Origin: Candidatus Helarchaeota archaeon
GTDB lineage: Archaea; Asgardarchaeota; Lokiarchaeia; Helarchaeales; RDOG01
DNA: 64,000 nt
Direction of reading: 5' to 3'
Assembly (NCBI GenBank): GCA_019058315.1
Contig: JAHPZH010000004.1
Span: 256,001 to 320,000 of the forward strand
The notes under the pieces were generated by a model, which saw only the letters and a program-made list of their open reading frames with translations, did not search any database and had not been told where the DNA came from. Position numbers and translations under genes: made by a program. How positions within the stretch are numbered: the stretch's first letter is position 1; the number at the start of each line of letters is the position of its first letter. Shown here piece after piece: positions 44,253 to 54,254 of this stretch.

Positions 44253-45383
44253 ATGAATAAAACAGCACTTTTTAAAATTCTAGATAATTTAAAAACTAAA
44301 TTAGATAGCTTCTCCAAGAAGTATGATGAGACGCTTAAGAAAAACTATGAAAACTTAAGTAAACTCAGCGATATTCTTTGGGAGATCCACGAAGCTTCTA
44401 GCTATTCTTGGATTGGACATCAATCTGAAGCATACCACCTAATTGGTAATGAATTTACGATCCCTCCCCCTAGTGAGGGATTTGATATAATGTCTGGACA
44501 TCCAAGATCAGTAAATTGGAAAAGAATACCATATATTGGTATTCAACAATGGATTGAGAATAAAACAGGGTTAAATATCTCAACTATTAGAAAACAAATA
44601 ATCGAAATAATGAATGAAACCCAACAAATACAAGAAGAAATTATTACCGATTTATCTATTTTGAAAGAGTTAAACCAATATAAAACTGAAATAGCGACTT
44701 TAGACGAAATAAATAATATGAAATGGGGTGTTCCAGAATCTTATCTTGTTAAGCAAAAAAGACCAAGTAATTTTTTTACAAGAGATATGCAAGCACTTAA
44801 TCTAGGGATGAGAACTCCTCCACATATAGAATACCTAGTCAATGTGGAATCAAGTCAAACAAAAATTTATTCAATTCGAAATTTTATAAAATTAGCAAAT
44901 AGATTAATAACACAGATTAAAATTAGAGAGGATTTAGAAATCAAGGTTCAACCTACGGATTTAGAAACTTATTATAATCTTATCGAGGAGACTAAAGAAA
45001 ATTTCAGAGCCACAATCATAAAAGAACCAATTAATGAATCTGATGTTCAAGATTATTATGAAAGCTTTTTGAAATCCAATAAATTTGATTTTAACCGCGA
45101 AAAAGATCAAGTCCTTTTTTCTGAGAAATTATTTGTTCCCGACTTCACAAGTGATGAATTTAAAATGGCAATCGAAGTTAAGTTCGTAAAAGATAACAAA
45201 ACTAAATCTGTTGTTATTGAAGGAATGAGTGCAGACTTGAAACCTTACTCTAAAAAGTGGGACAAAATCCTATACATTGTATATGATAAGGGTGGTAATA
45301 TTAACGATGGTAGGAAATTTACAAAAGATTTTAACGAAGAAACAGACGAATTAAGGACAGTATGTTTAGTAATTAAACATTAA
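44253..45383 (+). CDS. Putative defence protein: helical N-terminal domain + C-terminal PD-(D/E)xK nuclease (DpnII/MboI-like C domain)
   Basis: 'NESDVQD...L', 'RE', 'FVPDF......IEVKF', 'D..PY', 'YIVYD'. Confidence 0.75.
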   Translation: MNKTALFKILDNLKTKLDSFSKKYDETLKKNYENLSKLSDILWEIHEASSYSWIGHQSEAYHLIGNEFTIPPPSEGFDIMSGHPRSVNWKRIPYIGIQQWIENKTGLNISTIRKQIIEIMNETQQIQEEIITDLSILKELNQYKTEIATLDEINNMKWGVPESYLVKQKRPSNFFTRDMQALNLGMRTPPHIEYLVNVESSQTKIYSIRNFIKLANRLITQIKIREDLEIKVQPTDLETYYNLIEETKENFRATIIKEPINESDVQDYYESFLKSNKFDFNREKDQVLFSEKLFVPDFTSDEFKMAIEVKFVKDNKTKSVVIEGMSADLKPYSKKWDKILYIVYDKGGNINDGRKFTKDFNEETDELRTVCLVIKH

Positions 45384-46269: not shown

Positions 46270-48105
46270 TTATTTAAACATTAACTGAAAATATTCACTT
46301 GTTTCATTTCCAAAAATGTCTACGACGGTTAAAACTACTGTATAACTTCCTGCATTCTCATATTTATGCCTTATTTTAGTTTTCGCTGTTTTTATTATTT
46401 TTCTTCCCGAACCAATTTGTCTAAATGAATAATCACTTGCTCTAAATAATTTTTCTTCGTTATAGTCCCAATCTATTGCCCAGAAATCTATTAAATCTAA
46501 TGATTCTTCATCTTTTAAATCCAGACCATAAAGAGTTGTATGATAATTCGAATGAAATCTTATAAATTCGATATCAATTGTTAGATTAATTGGATTGATA
46601 GACTGTCGAAATTCTAAGAATGGTAATTCAGAAAAATGATGTTCATTTTCTTCCTCATCATTAATTAAAGATTGAGGAATAATTCTCAGTTCTACTTCTA
46701 TTTTTTGATCTTCTTGGAATAATTTTTTAAAGAAACCAACTTCCATAAAATATTCCCAACCCAAAATTATCAATTTATTTTTATTTAAACTCTTGACTTC
46801 TTCAATTGCATTTTGAATTTCTTTTGGAGAAATTATTGTATCAATACCACCGATATGGATATATGCATCGTTTATTTCGCCATGTAAGTGATCGTAACCA
46901 TCCAAATAAGAACCTTTAAATTGTTTCAAGATATACTCATAATATTTTTTATGGGTTTCGCCAATGTATTCTTCTGATTTTAGTTTCAAAAAGAGAAGAT
47001 GCTTGTTATACATCTCTAAATTTAATAATTGAAATGGGAAACTCGTAGATTTCGAATTTAAGAGAATTCGTTTTCTAATTTCATTTATAGAATATCTACT
47101 AATATCAACTGCTATCCATTTTCGCCCTAATTCTTGACCTGTTGCAACAGTTGTTCCTGACCCGCAAAAAAAATCTGCAATGATGTCATTTTTATTAGAA
47201 CATTGACGAATGATTCTATCAAGTAAAGAAATAGAATTTTCTGTGGGGTAAAGAGTCTTTTTTGTTTTTTCATATCCTGGTATATCAATCCAAATATTAT
47301 CATCATCAGCTTCATATTCAATAGGATCTGCAGTTTTTCGTTTCTTTTTTTCAAATTTTTCAAAAAATTTTGCGTTATTGCTCTTTCGATATAAAAATAA
47401 ACTGTCAACTTGAATAATTAAATGTTTTTGTCGTTCTAATGCTTTATCTGATACTGGTTTATAAATTCTTCTTACAAGATATTCACAAATAAAGTTATTC
47501 TCACCAAAAATTTCATCTAAAATTACTTTAATATAATGCCCATAATGATAATCAAATCTTACAGCCATAAAACCAATATCTTTTAATAATTTATAGATGA
47601 GAAAAGCTCTTTCATAAAACCATTGACATAAATTTTGGATATGATTTGAACCAGTCCATATATTTTTGTATGCAATATCCTTTATTGGACTTGGAAATTG
47701 TTTAATCGTTTTTTTAGTGCCTAATCCAATAGGAATATCAATATATTCATTAGCTCCAGTATAAAAAGGAGGATCAATATATACGAATTGAATTTTATTG
47801 CGGAATTTTCCCTCTAAACTCTTTAATACATATAAATTATCTCCCCAAATGAGTAAATTTTTCCAATTTTTTAAATAATCTTCTTCTTTTTCTTCTTTTT
47901 TTTTCTCATCAGACTCGAAATACTGCATTAAAGTTCTTGGAACTATTTTTTTTATCTTCTTTTTCTTTGATCTCTTCTGTTTTTGTTTTTGCAATAGTGA
48001 ATCATCATCATTTTTAGAGAGATATGTTTCTAAAAATTGTAAGTTTAATTTTGGAATTTCTCGAATATTTTTTTTCCATTTTAATTTTAAAGGGAATTCA
48101 TTCAT
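46270..48105 (-). CDS. mod: Type III R-M methyltransferase subunit (beta class), catalytic motifs intact, TRD truncated
   Basis: 'LIWGDNL', 'YIDPPF', 'DEIFGENNF', 'YPTENS..LLDRII', 'DFFCGSGTT', 'GRKWIAVD', C-terminal 'IDFWAIDWDY...VVDIFGN'. Confidence 0.9.
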   Translation of the reverse strand: MNEFPLKLKWKKNIREIPKLNLQFLETYLSKNDDDSLLQKQKQKRSKKKKIKKIVPRTLMQYFESDEKKKEEKEEDYLKNWKNLLIWGDNLYVLKSLEGKFRNKIQFVYIDPPFYTGANEYIDIPIGLGTKKTIKQFPSPIKDIAYKNIWTGSNHIQNLCQWFYERAFLIYKLLKDIGFMAVRFDYHYGHYIKVILDEIFGENNFICEYLVRRIYKPVSDKALERQKHLIIQVDSLFLYRKSNNAKFFEKFEKKKRKTADPIEYEADDDNIWIDIPGYEKTKKTLYPTENSISLLDRIIRQCSNKNDIIADFFCGSGTTVATGQELGRKWIAVDISRYSINEIRKRILLNSKSTSFPFQLLNLEMYNKHLLFLKLKSEEYIGETHKKYYEYILKQFKGSYLDGYDHLHGEINDAYIHIGGIDTIISPKEIQNAIEEVKSLNKNKLIILGWEYFMEVGFFKKLFQEDQKIEVELRIIPQSLINDEEENEHHFSELPFLEFRQSINPINLTIDIEFIRFHSNYHTTLYGLDLKDEESLDLIDFWAIDWDYNEEKLFRASDYSFRQIGSGRKIIKTAKTKIRHKYENAGSYTVVLTVVDIFGNETSEYFQLMFK

Positions 48106-50716
48106 TTTTATTCTCCAAAATGAACTTTGCCATTTCCAAAAATGGAATCTTTTGAAATGTATTGTAAAATAAATTCTCTTCTACAAACAGATAATTCCAG
48201 TTTTCACCCGCTTTTCTAACCCAATCTTCAGCAACTTTTCTCTTGAGTTTAGTACTTTGTTTATCAATGAATACCTCTCCTTTTGTTTCAATAATATAAT
48301 ATTGATTGTTTGTTGTTAAAACAAAAAAATCTGGTATATATCTTTTAAGAAAACCCTTTTCGTTATAATATAAATAAAATTTCATCTGCTTACTGACTTT
48401 ACAGAAACTTTTAACATCATTATCAGTATCTAAATATAATGCAAATTCTCTCTCTAACGCACTATCAAATGAGATATAATTAAAAATTGTCTTTTTAAAA
48501 CTCTCAACATTTTTACTCGTGAATTGGTGTCCACTTTCAGAAATTTTATAAATTTTTCCAGATTTTTTAAATTCGGTTTCTTTAATGTTTACATCAGAAA
48601 AAATCCTAGTCACTATGTCATAAATTTTCTTAATTACTAAAGGGTGATTTAATTTTAACATGATATTTTCATCTAAAAAGTCAATAGACCTTTCAAAGAA
48701 ATGATTTTTTAAATATTTTTTGAATTTAGGTAAGAAGGGTTGATAAGAATTTGAGATATGGAATTTTTTGAAAAAATGTTTTGTTAAATGGACTATATAA
48801 TCATTAATATCTTGAAAAAATGAAAAATCGATGTTTAATTCTCTTATAATTTCATCATTTCCATATTCCTTTTCATAGTATTTAGGCAGTTGAATTTTTA
48901 TTTCATCAATTTTCATTACTTGTTTTTCTAATTTCTCCCATGGAAAATCTTCTAAAGAGTTAATATGATAAAAAAAACCTCCTGACAATATTGGAATCTC
49001 AATGTCCAATTCTTTTTTTGAATGTAAAGGAAAAATTAATATTTCACTTGGTCTGAAGTCACCTATTTTACTAGTTTCAATATCAAAGAAGGTAAAATCA
49101 TCTTCACTTATACCTTCCTTCTTCAAAGCATTCACTATTAATGGTTCAAACCGTTCATGTTCAATTACCGTTAAATATTCATCTTGATCTTGAAATTGTT
49201 TCCTTAGTCCTCTTCCAAGAGTCTGTTCAACAAGAATATTCGATTCATAGGATCTTAATGGAACGATTACCTTAACACTTTTTACATCCCATCCTTCTTT
49301 CAACATCATAACACTTACAATAATTTTATAAGGATTAGTTGATTCATCGATAGTTTCAGCTGCATCCATAAGGTCGTCTATTTCCTCATCTAAGATTTCT
49401 CCTGCATTAACTCCTTTTTCTATCGTATGAATTAACAATACATTTCTTTTCGTATAGTTAGGATATTCTTCAACTATAAACTTCCAAACTTCATCAGCAT
49501 GTTTATTTTTATCTGTCATAATAAAAAGTATTGCTTTTTTATTTAAGGGCGTTAATAATTCTTCATATTCTTCGAGAATTCTAATACCTGCTTGAATCTG
49601 ATATTGGTTTATATATGCAAAATTATCAGATGATACTTCAGGAATATGAGTCAATTTTCCTATTTTAGGAATTTTCACAATTTTGTTATGAATAGCCTTA
49701 GAAAGAGGATAGTCTATAATGATATGTTCAAAGAATTTAGTCTGATCAGTCTGATATCTTGGCGTTGCAGTAAAATCTAATTGGAATTTAATATTATTTA
49801 AGTTATTACGGGTTTTTAGAGCTTTATTAATTTCTATAATGATTCTATTCCATGCTAAATATTCCGAATGGACATGATGAGCTTCATCATTAATAACCAT
49901 TATATTATCTCTAGTGCTTACACTTGAAAATAAAGGATTTTCAGTTGAAGATTTATTTATTAAATCATTTTTATCTATTGAATAATCCGAACTAGACATC
50001 AAACTAGCTTTCTTTAATATAGCAGGTATTGAATCTTGTTTTGAATATAGTTGATGAACATTAGTTAAGAAAATAACTCCTTTTTTATTTATTGGAGTAA
50101 TTTCAGAGCGATAGATAATTTGGATATCAAAGAACTTTTCCCAACCTTTTGGTATGAAAGGATACTTACGAAAAATAGAATTTGCACTGGAAATTGGTAA
50201 AAAATCTTTTTTTAATCTTTTATAAACAATCTTATTTGGAGCTATGACAAGAAAAGTATTAGCTAATCTATCACATATAGGTTCTTTATTTATAAAATTA
50301 AAATAACTCCAAATAATAGCAAGAACCATAATAAAAGTTTTCCCAGAGCCAGTTGCCATTTTAAAGCAATATTTAGGAAATTCGGATTGTTCGGCTTTTT
50401 TATCATATATTTGAGCTAAACTATCATCCCAAAATTTATTAAAAATATCTAGAATGTCTTTAGCTTCTAAAATTTCAACAATATAAATTAGAGTTTCTAT
50501 AGCTAATTGTTGAATTGGATAAAAAGAAAAAATATTTCCATCTGTTGTCTCATGATCAGTTTCAAACCAAAATCCTAAGAGTTGTTTAGTGGTTTTAGTT
50601 ACGCCTTTGTACCTTTCTTCCCAATTTGCATCGGAGTTTCTCCATTCAATTACTTTTTCTAATAATTGTTGAACTATTGGAAATTGGGAAGATGTCAAAT
50701 AATCATTACTATTCAA
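48098..50716 (-). CDS. res: Type III R-M restriction subunit (SF2 helicase-like ATPase + PD-(D/E)xK nuclease)
   Basis: 'KMATGSGKT', 'NDEAHH', 'FTATP', 'MLKEGWDV', 'EQTLGRGLR', 'YIPDF...IIETKG'. Confidence 0.92.
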   Translation of the reverse strand: MNSNDYLTSSQFPIVQQLLEKVIEWRNSDANWEERYKGVTKTTKQLLGFWFETDHETTDGNIFSFYPIQQLAIETLIYIVEILEAKDILDIFNKFWDDSLAQIYDKKAEQSEFPKYCFKMATGSGKTFIMVLAIIWSYFNFINKEPICDRLANTFLVIAPNKIVYKRLKKDFLPISSANSIFRKYPFIPKGWEKFFDIQIIYRSEITPINKKGVIFLTNVHQLYSKQDSIPAILKKASLMSSSDYSIDKNDLINKSSTENPLFSSVSTRDNIMVINDEAHHVHSEYLAWNRIIIEINKALKTRNNLNNIKFQLDFTATPRYQTDQTKFFEHIIIDYPLSKAIHNKIVKIPKIGKLTHIPEVSSDNFAYINQYQIQAGIRILEEYEELLTPLNKKAILFIMTDKNKHADEVWKFIVEEYPNYTKRNVLLIHTIEKGVNAGEILDEEIDDLMDAAETIDESTNPYKIIVSVMMLKEGWDVKSVKVIVPLRSYESNILVEQTLGRGLRKQFQDQDEYLTVIEHERFEPLIVNALKKEGISEDDFTFFDIETSKIGDFRPSEILIFPLHSKKELDIEIPILSGGFFYHINSLEDFPWEKLEKQVMKIDEIKIQLPKYYEKEYGNDEIIRELNIDFSFFQDINDYIVHLTKHFFKKFHISNSYQPFLPKFKKYLKNHFFERSIDFLDENIMLKLNHPLVIKKIYDIVTRIFSDVNIKETEFKKSGKIYKISESGHQFTSKNVESFKKTIFNYISFDSALEREFALYLDTDNDVKSFCKVSKQMKFYLYYNEKGFLKRYIPDFFVLTTNNQYYIIETKGEVFIDKQSTKLKRKVAEDWVRKAGENWNYLFVEENLFYNTFQKIPFLEMAKFILENKNE

Positions 50717-50718
50717 AT

Positions 50719-52518
50719 TTATGTCCCCTTTTCTAATTTATAACATGCACCACATATATCGTAAATCTCTAATTTAATTAATTTAATCTCTTTTTCTAAT
50801 GTTATTTTTATTAATTTTTCAAGATTTAGTACATCAATCTTACGATGAAATATTTTTGAAAAGACAATATTACCTCTATTATCTAATAGTTGTAAGATCC
50901 AATGGCTTAATCTTCCAAAAGTTAATTTAGTATGATCAAATTCTATTATCTTTAATGAAATGATTTGATCATTCAAGAAAAAAAAATCTTCAATTTCACA
51001 TTTAAATTCAGAATTAATTATATCCATATTCACTTCCACAACTGGAGCTTTTAAAAATATCCCATTAGTTTTCGACTTTTCCCATATTTGTTCGAGTTTC
51101 CAGAACTGAACTTTTTGTCTCTTATTAGATAGTTCGCTTTTTAACTGATCCCATTTCTCATCTTCAAGAAAATCAGGTGCAATAATGATAAAAGATTCAA
51201 ATATGTGTTTAAAATCTCCAAATTCGGAAATACATATTTCTAATTCATGAGCCGTAAACGTGTGGTGTGGCGGTGAAATATGTAGAAGAGAATTATTGTA
51301 AATTGCTGAAAATATTAATGAATTTGAGATTACTTTTGCATTTAAGAGTTTGCATATAAATTCTATGAATCCATTTTCAAAATACTCTTCTATATAATCA
51401 TATTGATATGAACCTATGGCAATTGACTCAATTGAAAATTTATTCGTTATAAAAAAGTTTTGACATAACGAAATGCCTAACATTCTGGGATCAATGCCTA
51501 CATAATTTCTATTTAACTCGGTAGTTACTTTTGCACAAGTTCCAGATCCTACGAAAATATGCAATAGAATTCCATTTTCTTCCGAAAAGCTTTGTATTAT
51601 TCGTTCATAAACTTTATCTTGTAATTCCCAACCCAAATGAGATAGGGCGAAAGCTTCTAAATCAAGCCAGTTATTATCAACAATATGACCTTGTTTTGGT
51701 TCAACCCAATAAACCGGTTTTCCTTCTGTATTTAACTTAATAGTCCCATTGGCACATCTTTTGTCTATGGTAGCTTGTTTGAATTTCCAATGACTGCCAA
51801 CAGGTGGTGCAATTTTATGTTCTTTTCCGTTAATTTTAAATATACGGGGAGGTCCTTGTCCTTTTGAATGCATTGTGTGCCAATATCCGCCAGATTCTTT
51901 TTCTTTATAACTTGGAATTATTTTGGGATTTTCACTTTTAGTATATATAAAAAAGCAAGAAGTAACTTCTTTTGTAAGAGAATTTGAATCATCAGAGTTT
52001 TTTTGGTAAAATGGAGATTGAATAAAAACCTCATTTAAAAACTTATCATAGCCCAAAGTGTTATCTAATAAAATTTTTAAGTAATGTCTGTACCTTCCAA
52101 TATATTTAATAATAAAGAAACCTTGTTCGCTTAAAAGATCCCAAGTTTCTTTTATTAAAGACTCCAAATTCGTGAAATATTCTTCTATCGAACCTTTAAA
52201 ATAAACTTCTGCTGGCAGACCTATTGGATTATAAAAATTATGAAATTTATTTGGGTCATATAGATTTGGTCTTTTTAAAATAGATGCTTTGTCCTCACTT
52301 TCCTCTTTATAAGGTAAATCAATAAGTATGATTTGATAATCTTTTGGTATTTTACATCGTTCATTAGAAAATTTTAATCCTTTAATAACAGTTATTAAAT
52401 TATGACCCCATAGGAGGAAATTTTGTTTTTTATCAAATTTCTTTGAAAATATTTTTATTAGTGGAGGTAAATTATTTAATCCTGCCAAATTTTGTTTATT
52501 TTTGTTCCAATTTAGCAT
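50719..52518 (-). CDS. Second Mod-like subunit with degenerate catalytic motifs and full TRD
   Basis: 'LLWGHNL', 'LIDLPY' (vs DPPY/F), 'LDNTLGYDKFLNEV', TRD 'PPVGSHWKF', 'HIFVGSGT' (vs DFF.GSGT), 'LNRNYVGID'. Confidence 0.8.
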   Translation of the reverse strand: MLNWNKNKQNLAGLNNLPPLIKIFSKKFDKKQNFLLWGHNLITVIKGLKFSNERCKIPKDYQIILIDLPYKEESEDKASILKRPNLYDPNKFHNFYNPIGLPAEVYFKGSIEEYFTNLESLIKETWDLLSEQGFFIIKYIGRYRHYLKILLDNTLGYDKFLNEVFIQSPFYQKNSDDSNSLTKEVTSCFFIYTKSENPKIIPSYKEKESGGYWHTMHSKGQGPPRIFKINGKEHKIAPPVGSHWKFKQATIDKRCANGTIKLNTEGKPVYWVEPKQGHIVDNNWLDLEAFALSHLGWELQDKVYERIIQSFSEENGILLHIFVGSGTCAKVTTELNRNYVGIDPRMLGISLCQNFFITNKFSIESIAIGSYQYDYIEEYFENGFIEFICKLLNAKVISNSLIFSAIYNNSLLHISPPHHTFTAHELEICISEFGDFKHIFESFIIIAPDFLEDEKWDQLKSELSNKRQKVQFWKLEQIWEKSKTNGIFLKAPVVEVNMDIINSEFKCEIEDFFFLNDQIISLKIIEFDHTKLTFGRLSHWILQLLDNRGNIVFSKIFHRKIDVLNLEKLIKITLEKEIKLIKLEIYDICGACYKLEKGT

Positions 52519-53045: not shown

Positions 53046-54254
53046 TCACTTATTCAATAACTCTAATTCTAAATTATGAATTTTAACGTCTTTCTCTTTT
53101 ATTTGCTTTTCTAATTCATTAATTTTAGCTTCATCAGTCCGTACAAAAAGCATGACCGCATTTTCCCACTTTAAAAATTGTTCATAAAGCCAACTATCCG
53201 ATTTAATTAAGTCATTGTAATGATCGATTTGCTTATCATAGTGAAAGGTAATCAATTTTAAGTACCAATCATCTAATTTCGGTTTTACATATAATCTAAT
53301 GGAAGTTTCCATGTATCTACGAAAACAATTTGAAGAAAGGGATTCTCTCTTAATTAAATTTAATTTATTGTGAAAATAATTTAACGTATCATTGAAATTT
53401 TTTTCTGAAATTCGTTTCCCATGCCTAGTTAAAAATAATTGTTGTAAATCCAACTCTCTTAAATCCTCTAAATTAAAAAACAACTTCAATTTCTGCTCTA
53501 TTTCTTTTGTAATAAACAGTTTCTTTAACCCCACCATTCTTTTAGAACTCATGAACTCAACTTCCCCTTTTTTTGTCGTTATGTGGTATCTTTCTTGAAA
53601 TTTATTAAGAAAATAATTTCCATTAGTAATTTTATTTAAAATATCATCAATTCGTAACCCTGTTTGACTTAGAAATAAATGTAATAACGCATAATCTTTA
53701 GACCTAAAGCATAAATGGATTTTTCTGTTCAATTTTTTATCCACAAGAACAAAGTTCTTTTCTGAACCATATTTATTTGAATCAATATACCCTTCTATTC
53801 TTTTATTAATAGAAGAAAAATAACTCATTACCCTAGATTGTATCGTGTTCAATATGGTAGTTTCCCCAAACTTCCTCACACCTTTAATTTTAGAATCTCT
53901 AGAAATTTCTAATAAATGGTTAATAAAAGCAATGAAAATTTCACTCCTTTTAGTATCTTCTAATTCTGCAAATCTTTCAATATCCGAATTATGATTATTC
54001 TCTAAAAATTGATTAAACAAGTTCAAATAGTCTATATATTGCCGAAATTTGAATTTATGAATATTTTTTGTGAATTTGCTTCTTGAATGGTATTGACTTA
54101 CTCTTATTCTTAACCAAGAATTCACCTTTTCAGGAAACTTTTTATAAACTCCAAACCTTCTAGCCCAAGTATCCCTGTTATTTTCAATAATTTTATCAAT
54201 TGACATTTTAGTTACTCCCTTTTTTTCATCAAAGGTATTATTTGAATTATACAA
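53046..54254 (-). CDS. Second tyrosine recombinase (XerC/D-like) with C-terminal coiled coil; likely start MSIDKII (~54205)
   Basis: 'SQTGLRIDDI' (R), 'SSKR' (K), 'SNCFRRY' (xxxR), 'ITFH', 'DHYND' (Y); coiled-coil tail. Confidence 0.82.
   Translation of the reverse strand: MYNSNNTFDEKKGVTKMSIDKIIENNRDTWARRFGVYKKFPEKVNSWLRIRVSQYHSRSKFTKNIHKFKFRQYIDYLNLFNQFLENNHNSDIERFAELEDTKRSEIFIAFINHLLEISRDSKIKGVRKFGETTILNTIQSRVMSYFSSINKRIEGYIDSNKYGSEKNFVLVDKKLNRKIHLCFRSKDYALLHLFLSQTGLRIDDILNKITNGNYFLNKFQERYHITTKKGEVEFMSSKRMVGLKKLFITKEIEQKLKLFFNLEDLRELDLQQLFLTRHGKRISEKNFNDTLNYFHNKLNLIKRESLSSNCFRRYMETSIRLYVKPKLDDWYLKLITFHYDKQIDHYNDLIKSDSWLYEQFLKWENAVMLFVRTDEAKINELEKQIKEKDVKIHNLELELLNK

Follow-up and report, generated by a model that had tools for sequence, protein, structure and literature searches.

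A type III restriction-modification locus of an Asgard archaeon with two complementary Mod paralogs, a candidate reader-writer methyltransferase pair

In the type III restriction-modification (R-M) enzyme EcoP15I, two tasks are shared out between the Mod protomers: reading of the site falls to the target-recognition domain (TRD) of one, methylation of the flipped adenine to its partner, and geometry prevents a single Mod from doing both (PMC4490356). Can these two roles be distributed over two genes? The question is raised by a stretch of 64,000 nucleotides (nt) of a Candidatus Helarchaeota genome (assembly GCA_019058315.1, contig JAHPZH010000004.1, positions 256,001 to 320,000; hereafter the window), which carries a restriction gene, res, between two different methyltransferase (MTase) genes, modA and modB. 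A preliminary description of this DNA had proposed that the division of labour is here fixed in a 'reader' and a 'writer' gene. This proposal is likely to be right and is supported by a family-wide complementarity of the two proteins, by their fusions, by congruent trees, by the ratio of nonsynonymous to synonymous substitution rates (dN/dS) and by a predicted interface. The three genes are as follows.

50719..52518, minus strand: modA, 599 amino acids (aa), the proposed 'reader', a beta-class MTase paralog whose catalytic motifs are eroded
48098..50716, minus strand: res, 872 aa, TTG start, type III restriction subunit
46270..48105, minus strand: modB, 611 aa, a catalytic Mod without TRD block, the proposed 'writer'

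The open reading frames (ORFs) were found exactly where the preliminary description had placed a tightly coupled modA-res-modB operon. The mod and res genes are adjacent and co-oriented and form one operon on the minus strand, in which modA and res are separated by 2 nt and res and modB overlap by 8 nt, and an equal layout is seen at three of the further loci described below (L003, L006 and L014). Given their length of 599-872 codons in DNA of 27% G+C and the E-values obtained, these ORFs are not chance reading frames. PADLOC labels their products, in order, MTase_III, REase_III and MTase_III, and Pfam detects PF01555 (N6_N4_Mtase) in ModA with 60 bits and in ModB with 115 bits, as well as PF04851 (ResIII, 73 bits) and PF19778 (RE_endonuc, 36 bits) in Res. 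The latter protein carries the superfamily 2 (SF2) helicase motifs GSGKT, DEAH, TATP and GRGLR and a C-terminal nuclease motif PD...ETK, and it aligns along its whole length, at 33% identity, with the Res protein of a canonical mod-res operon (L016, that of the Cuniculiplasma Mod P0071). The locus thus shows the features of a type III system, namely a beta-class Mod, a Res with SF2 helicase and PD-(D/E)xK nuclease, and adjacent, co-oriented mod and res genes. Judged by these features of Mod, Res and operon it is of the type III R-M kind, and it would depart from this kind in the defining Mod homodimer (Mod2Res1/2). Further hallmarks of type III systems are the hemimethylation of an asymmetric site and an ATP-dependent cleavage that requires two unmodified sites in inverse orientation.

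The two MTase subunits differ in the parts of a Mod protein that they have kept, as can be seen from the position and state of their motifs.

52309..52320, minus strand: eroded motif IV of ModA, DLPY replacing (D/N/S)PP(Y/F/W)
51661..51933, minus strand: recognition (TRD) block of ModA, residues 196-286, reading GGYWHTMHSKGQG, then PPVGSHWKFKQ, to DNNWLD
51619..51660, minus strand: motif X-equivalent position of ModA, YPTENS lost, reading LEAFALSHLGWELQ
51535..51555, minus strand: motif I of ModA, FVGSGTC, FxGxG-like in this copy and eroded in most family members
47764..47775, minus strand: motif IV of ModB, DPPF, residue 111
47302..47379, minus strand: remnant of the TRD site of ModB, 26 residues from YRKS to DNIW, where ModA and complete relatives carry the TRD block
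47233..47250, minus strand: motif X of ModB, YPTENS, residue 286
47149..47169, minus strand: motif I of ModB, FCGSGTT, residue 313

ModA is composed of an N-terminal domain (NTD), a pseudo-MTase core, the recognition block, an alpha/beta C-terminal domain and an immunoglobulin (Ig)-like end domain. The distance between YTKS and DNNW amounts to 85 residues and includes PPVGSHW, GHNL is present, and LGWELQ occupies the position of YPTxxx. In a joint alignment the block is homologous to that of the complete stand-alone Mods P0041, P0068 and P0037 and runs GYWHTMHSKGQG, PPVGSHWKF.Q..ID, G.IKLN, G.PVYW and DNNWLD. ModB possesses the motif order IV...X-I of a beta-class N6/N4 amino-MTase. When aligned to EcoP15I Mod (4zcf, E 1.4e-16), it matches on both sides of the TRD and has about 110 fewer residues between the N- and C-terminal motif blocks; in the joint alignment it is without exactly the block that ModA and the complete Mods share. 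The motif states that the preliminary description had read from both proteins (DLPY, FVGSGT, GHNL, loss of YPTxxx and 85 residues with PPxGxxW in ModA; YIDPPF, DFFCGSGTT, YPTENS and 26 residues between YRKS and DNIW in ModB) are all present to the residue.

A full TRD hidden elsewhere in ModB was considered and rejected, as ModB contains no folded domain that complete relatives lack: with its NTD, MTase core, alpha/beta domain and Ig-like end it has the domain set of the complete relatives, the TRD block excepted. What ModB possesses in addition is a disordered, lysine-rich linker, an insert of 45 residues at residues 31-78 with a predicted local distance difference test score (pLDDT) of 45-59.

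This complementarity is not confined to the window. A profile search of 1.84 billion representative proteins, followed by motif extraction, yielded 35 ModA-type and 34 ModB-type sequences, across which TRD loss and catalytic loss co-occur. Motif X is lost and the TRD block kept in every one of the 35 ModA-type sequences, none of 33 has a canonical motif IV (examples are DLPA, NLTH, DLSK and KTPV), and motif I is destroyed in most members (for instance LSVDFGES and INSPNFFN). All ModB-type sequences show the reverse state, with DPP[FYH], a conserved motif X position (YPTENS in most), FxGSGT(T) and no TRD block, while complete relatives carry all motifs and the TRD on one chain (16 of 16 sampled). 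Motifs IV and I are spaced 199-206 residues apart in all Asgard ModB-type proteins and mostly 247-299 in the stand-alone relatives. The latter derive from Thermoplasmata, DPANN archaea and bacteria and show about 34% identity; in most of them PPxGx[HRK]W precedes motif I by about 85 residues. When ModA homologs are aligned, motifs IV and I drift and the block 212-286, with invariant residues inside, remains nearly unchanged. The conservation per alignment column quantifies these patterns.

TRD block: 3.10 bits/column in ModA-type, absent in ModB-type sequences
Predicted interface: 2.45 bits/column in ModA-type, 2.78 in ModB-type sequences
Rest of core: 1.75 bits/column in ModA-type, 2.89 in ModB-type sequences
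Motif IV: 2.54 bits/column in ModA-type, 4.08 in ModB-type sequences
Motif X: 1.07 bits/column in ModA-type, 4.18 in ModB-type sequences
Motif I: 1.70 bits/column in ModA-type, 3.88 in ModB-type sequences

All ModA homologs with a named source come from metagenome-assembled genomes of Asgard archaea (Hel-, Prometh-, Sigyn-, Heimdall- and Odinarchaeota). We found no reader/writer pair outside this group: long hits with N-terminal extensions turned out to be complete MTase domains, and all seven non-Asgard loci of a genome scan encode complete Mods. The profile search also returned a protein of 1598 aa (P0177) with three complete tandem beta-class MTase domains (DPPF three times, FxGSGT three times).

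The search for other modA-res-modB loci, which the preliminary description had suggested, revealed the arrangement at at least five further Asgard loci.

L003: Promethearchaeota; ModA 34%, ModB 43-46% and Res 48% identical to the proteins of the window
L006/L007: modA-res-modB, the res/modB overlap again being 8 nt
L013: modA-res-modB, partial
L014: modA-res-modB, with the deep-branching pair P0132/P0022
L005 and L009: one Heimdall assembly (GCA_026702845.1), res interrupted at an IS66 element and a contig break

In the last case, the res gene is split over two contigs (L005:9751-11231 and L009:168-2201), with a transposase of the IS66 family behind the N-terminal fragment. Res may have been inactivated by an insertion, or the assembly may have broken at a repeat.

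The pairing of both proteins is also found on one chain. Three of the first ModA matches were proteins of 840-860 aa with a ModA-type N-terminal half and a ModB-type C-terminal half, and in total 25 clusters of such single-chain fusions (760-860 aa) were identified in Hod-, Heimdall-, Prometh-, Odin- and Sigynarchaeota, in each of which the TRD block lies around residue 210 and DPPF around residue 430. None of the 12 loci with a fused gene that we examined contains res nearby. At a Hermodarchaeota locus (L008), a 342-aa ModA-type gene lies directly upstream of a ModB-type gene, likewise without res. A C-terminal region of about 240 aa in ModA follows the presence of res: it is found in all five res-containing loci with a full-length ModA (the partial L013 was left out) and is absent from all 13 res-less loci, i.e. 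the 12 fused loci and L008. Neither the fusions nor the congruent trees described below were known to the preliminary description.

With respect to architecture, the fused protein included in an alignment with the split and stand-alone proteins does not contain the alpha/beta middle domain, which is present in split ModA, split ModB and stand-alone Mods and corresponds to the Res-contacting C-terminal domain of EcoP15I. Compared with split ModB, the C-terminal half is shortened by about 120 aa in all 25 fused proteins.

Among 301 sampled genomes of the phylum, 20 carry ModA-type genes. A family belonging to the same class as the window yielded none at E <= 1e-25 in 68 genomes. One Asgard family (f25), which includes the closed genome CP070695.1, has one fused gene of about 800 aa per genome in 18 of its 21 species-level genomes. 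This distribution makes the fusion look vertically kept and the R-M form patchy. The fused gene of this family (e.g. G259:C1:4733729-4734442, locus L015) lies among housekeeping genes with no res nearby. A separate MTase of about 450-490 aa (L001:3910-5370, minus strand) recurs 3-6 kb from the fused gene in several genomes and has weaker homologs at L020:263-1636, L021:385-1725 and L022:259-1635; its motif order, DPFMGTGTA followed by SSPPY (I before IV), is the reverse of the beta-class order.

We further compared the descent of both subunits in a maximum-likelihood tree of 88 MTase cores, which was rooted at the midpoint only, so that we make no claim as to which form came first. The ModA-type, ModB-type and complete proteins form separate, supported clades with values of 100, 98 and 97, respectively. 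The ModA and ModB subtrees are congruent, with the pairs P0012 and P0013, P0056 and P0133, P0096 and P0121, and P0029 and P0034 recovered in both, and with P0009 beside the clade of the window in either. Because the two subtrees mirror each other, the data agree with a single ancient duplication, after which both genes descended together and were fused or split several times. The branches of ModA are about twice as long as those of ModB. Nevertheless, modA homologs are intact, full-length ORFs in every locus at identities of 29-57%, and for the closest operon pair (L006 and L013) dN/dS is 0.26 for ModA (384 codons) and 0.16 for Res. The ModA value indicates that modA is under purifying selection, and the preliminary description had named pseudogene-like decay of modA as a finding that would speak against its proposal. 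The computational checks suggested there all favoured the proposal, and of the contrary findings listed there that computation can reveal, none was observed.

The same operon pair bears on the suggestion that specificity could be changed by swapping modA. While the TRD segment (73 codons) of both modA genes shows a dS of 1.23, the rest of the gene has a dS of 0.106, and nucleotide identity drops to 65-88% in the TRD segment (L006:8325-8620) from about 95% elsewhere. This mosaic looks like a recombinational exchange of the TRD, in a single case, and provides a hint, from one case of 73 codons, that specificity is resettable through modA. Elsewhere in the family, no part of ModA is more conserved than the TRD block, and this pair is the one case that supports the suggestion of the preliminary description.

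We employed AlphaFold2 models to compare both proteins with solved structures. The models of ModA and ModB reached a pLDDT of 91 and 84, respectively, and for both the best structural matches are type III Mods. ModB yielded a VIA Z of 27.5 to 6k0w_B and of 26.7 to EcoP15I Mod (4zcf_A, 277 residues aligned); ModA yielded 23.0 to 7dsu_B and 22.4 to 4zcf_B (320 residues aligned), with a range of 22-23 over 7dsu, 6k0w and 4zcf. The chains of METTL3 and MTA1 gave a Z of about 12-14 against 22-27 for the type III Mods. For the heterodimer, ModA 1-485 and ModB 1-488 were predicted together, each with its own alignment, resulting in an ipSAE (interaction prediction score from aligned errors) of 0.81 compared to 0.00 for the best control. 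Of 80 solved complexes 58 attain this mark, as do 2 of 110 mismatched pairs, counts that are only rough guides here as own alignments were used. Three runs share at least 85% of their contacts, with a partner pLDDT of at least 70. The predicted interface is built from ModA 142-149 and ModB 186-194, which are homologous helices, together with the N-termini of both proteins and neighbouring strands, and it leaves ModA 210-277 free. The prediction thus agrees with the proposed pairing, yet the score may reflect memory of, or likeness to, the solved EcoP15I Mod2 dimer and not independent evidence.

Taken together, we consider it probable that the locus encodes a type III R-M system in which the Mod2 homodimer has been replaced by complementary paralogs, i.e. 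a hard-wired version of the EcoP15I-type division of labour in a ModA-ModB-Res complex. ModA, which keeps the beta-class MTase fold, the dimer interface, the NTD, a recognition block of about 90 residues and the C-terminal alpha/beta domain, would read the DNA and, by analogy with EcoP15I, would also dock Res through its C-terminal domain. The docking on ModA is supported by the occurrence of this C-terminal region in five of five loci with res and in none of 13 without. ModB, with intact motifs IV, X and I and a precisely deleted recognition block, would flip and N6-methylate the target adenine, the N6-methyladenine (m6A) product being predicted because of the DPPF motif. As in the EcoP15I dimer, both proteins would associate by way of their MTase cores and N-termini, and Res, with its SF2 helicase and PD-ExK nuclease, would join them to form a ModA-ModB-Res complex that cuts unmethylated DNA. 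We infer in this way DNA reading by ModA, m6A transfer by ModB and Res docking on the C-terminal domain of ModA, as well as the stoichiometry, a restriction activity and a recognized sequence.

Several observations weigh against this assignment of roles or would suit a system in which a ModB homodimer is the working MTase that reads DNA via its lysine-rich N-terminal linker or its C-terminal domains, with ModA as an accessory protein (a Res adaptor or regulator) instead of the reader. Three stand-alone relatives have a spacing between motif IV and motif I of only 210-217, among them P0130 with 210 and P0122 with 217, and P0122 belongs to an ordinary mod-res operon (L010), so that a tiny TRD may suffice for a beta-class Mod to function without a partner. 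The disordered, lysine-rich insert of 45 residues at ModB residues 31-78 would provide such a homodimer with a candidate DNA-reading element. Moreover, whereas the TRDs of classical type III mod alleles are hypervariable, the TRD block is the segment of ModA that varies least. Such invariance is unusual for a specificity domain, and the block could be a structural scaffold and not a specificity determinant. The fusions, however, fix ModA and ModB at a ratio of 1:1 even without Res, and the role of ModA therefore cannot be related to Res only. In addition, conservation in ModA peaks in exactly the block which complete relatives employ in cis, and the EcoP15I geometry needs the TRD of the partner (PMC4490356). 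A ModB homodimer with an accessory ModA hence appears unlikely to us.

A further objection concerns catalysis by ModA itself. In the copy of the window, FVGSGT and the following GID still look capable of binding S-adenosylmethionine (SAM) and D..PY of motif IV is left, and because FVGSGT and D..PY are kept, this particular copy may have residual activity. The same remnants would agree with two independently active MTases (M1 and M2) that each modify one strand or a different site, as in type IIS systems or in the non-canonical type I enzyme PacII M1M2S, and precedents with two different active M subunits are given in PMC9613975. Across the family, however, none of the 35 ModA-type sequences has motif X, a canonical motif IV does not occur and motif I is mostly destroyed, while the proteins stay under selection despite this loss, which leaves two active enzymes a very improbable explanation. 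Even less credible, to the point of being barely worth entertaining, is that modA represents a functionless decaying duplicate. The long branches, about twice those of ModB, and the eroded catalytic motifs would be expected of such a gene, but full-length ORFs persist in every locus at identities down to 29%, the TRD contains invariant residues, and the dN/dS of 0.26 and the retention of the fused form in 18 of 21 genomes of one family led us to reject the pseudogene reading.

The reader-writer arrangement can be set beside already characterized systems. With EcoP15I (Mod2Res1, PDB 4ZCF) the Asgard system shares the beta-class motif order, the NTD and the C-terminal domain of Mod, the SF2 helicase and PD-ExK nuclease of Res, and adjacent, translationally coupled genes. 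In contrast to EcoP15I, where identical protomers adopt two roles, the Asgard operon fixes these roles in two genes with complementary losses; its gene order is modA-res-modB instead of mod-res, and its proteins carry an extra Ig-like (PKD-like) end domain. The stand-alone complete Mods, of which P0071 from Cuniculiplasma is the closest relative among those looked up and is encoded in the canonical mod-res operon L016, share the NTD, MTase core, alpha/beta C-terminal domain and Ig-like end as well as the TRD block (HMDSAGQG, PPxGKHW, DTNWTD), but unite catalytic motifs and TRD on one chain. M.FokI is a tandem two-domain MTase in which both modules are active, on one strand each. The fused Asgard proteins resemble M.FokI and PacII M1M2S in combining two MTase modules in one enzyme and differ from them in that the N-terminal module is eroded, while both modules are active in the latter.

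Class-beta MTases have been described as obligate dimers, with heterodimers of an active and an eroded subunit given only for eukaryotes, i.e. MTA1-MTA9 of ciliates and METTL3-METTL14 (PMC7544214). The Asgard pair resembles these enzymes in consisting of an active class-beta subunit and a paralog with an eroded motif IV. The eukaryotic proteins, however, are MT-A70 enzymes and not PF01555 proteins, score a Z of about 13 compared to 23-27 for type III Mods, possess no such TRD insert in their dead subunits and have no Res partner. Membership of ModA or ModB in MT-A70 (PF05063) was rejected, since PF01555 is the only family found at E <= 0.1 and METTL3 and MTA1 reach a Z of only about 12-14. The active/pseudo-active pairing is thus, on the strength of the complementary motifs (35 ModA-type and 34 ModB-type sequences) and the congruent trees, a match in design class. 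The parallel to METTL3-METTL14 is, as far as the sequences go, one of design only with no phylogenetic link shown, in line with the preliminary description, which had called it conceptual and not necessarily ancestral. In the literature that we searched, no description of a prokaryotic Mod heterodimer with an eroded subunit was found, which is no proof of absence.

Two neighbouring genes in the window are of note. Shortly downstream of modB, but on the plus strand, lies a 376-aa ORF (44253-45383) whose product carries a restriction endonuclease domain of the DpnII/MboI type at its C-terminus (PF18742, E 1.8e-12). Directly upstream of modA, a 402-aa ORF (53046-54254, minus strand) weakly resembles tyrosine recombinases (PF00589, E 0.008, short of the cutoff). 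The putative recombinase-like ORF and the neighbouring nuclease genes suggest a defence island or an integrated element. A scan for flanking repeats with a seed of 12 nt and a lower length limit of 20 nt, which is blind to arms of 14 nt, gave no convincing result. No RNA data set was listed as containing the operon; the one data set that contains it is a sediment metagenome, probably the origin of the DNA itself, and has no bearing on expression.

The EcoP15I crystal structure suggested that class-beta DNA MTases must be dimers of one reader and one writer protomer (PMC4490356). This idea rests on few homodimer structures, in which both roles are genetically inseparable, and the Asgard genes seem to separate them. 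The split over two genes offers a clean system in which one role at a time can be mutated or swapped, and a separable reader module could ease the engineering of MTase specificity. If our reading is right, the locus represents a prokaryotic active/eroded class-beta pair, in the archaeal group closest to eukaryotes, and the conserved fused form in one Asgard family is a candidate epigenetic writer. We tentatively go one step further, in a proposal that falls somewhat short of an even chance, namely that the reader-writer pair could be an invention shared across the Asgard archaea and put to two uses. As ModA-Res-ModB it would form a mobile defence system of patchy occurrence; as a Res-free single-chain fusion, inherited as a near-core gene in one Heimdall/Hod family (18 of 21 genomes), it would serve as a housekeeping DNA m6A writer. 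If this were true, the design of a live subunit plus a dead paralog known from eukaryotic m6A writers would already be in use in the archaeal relatives of eukaryotes, independent of MT-A70.

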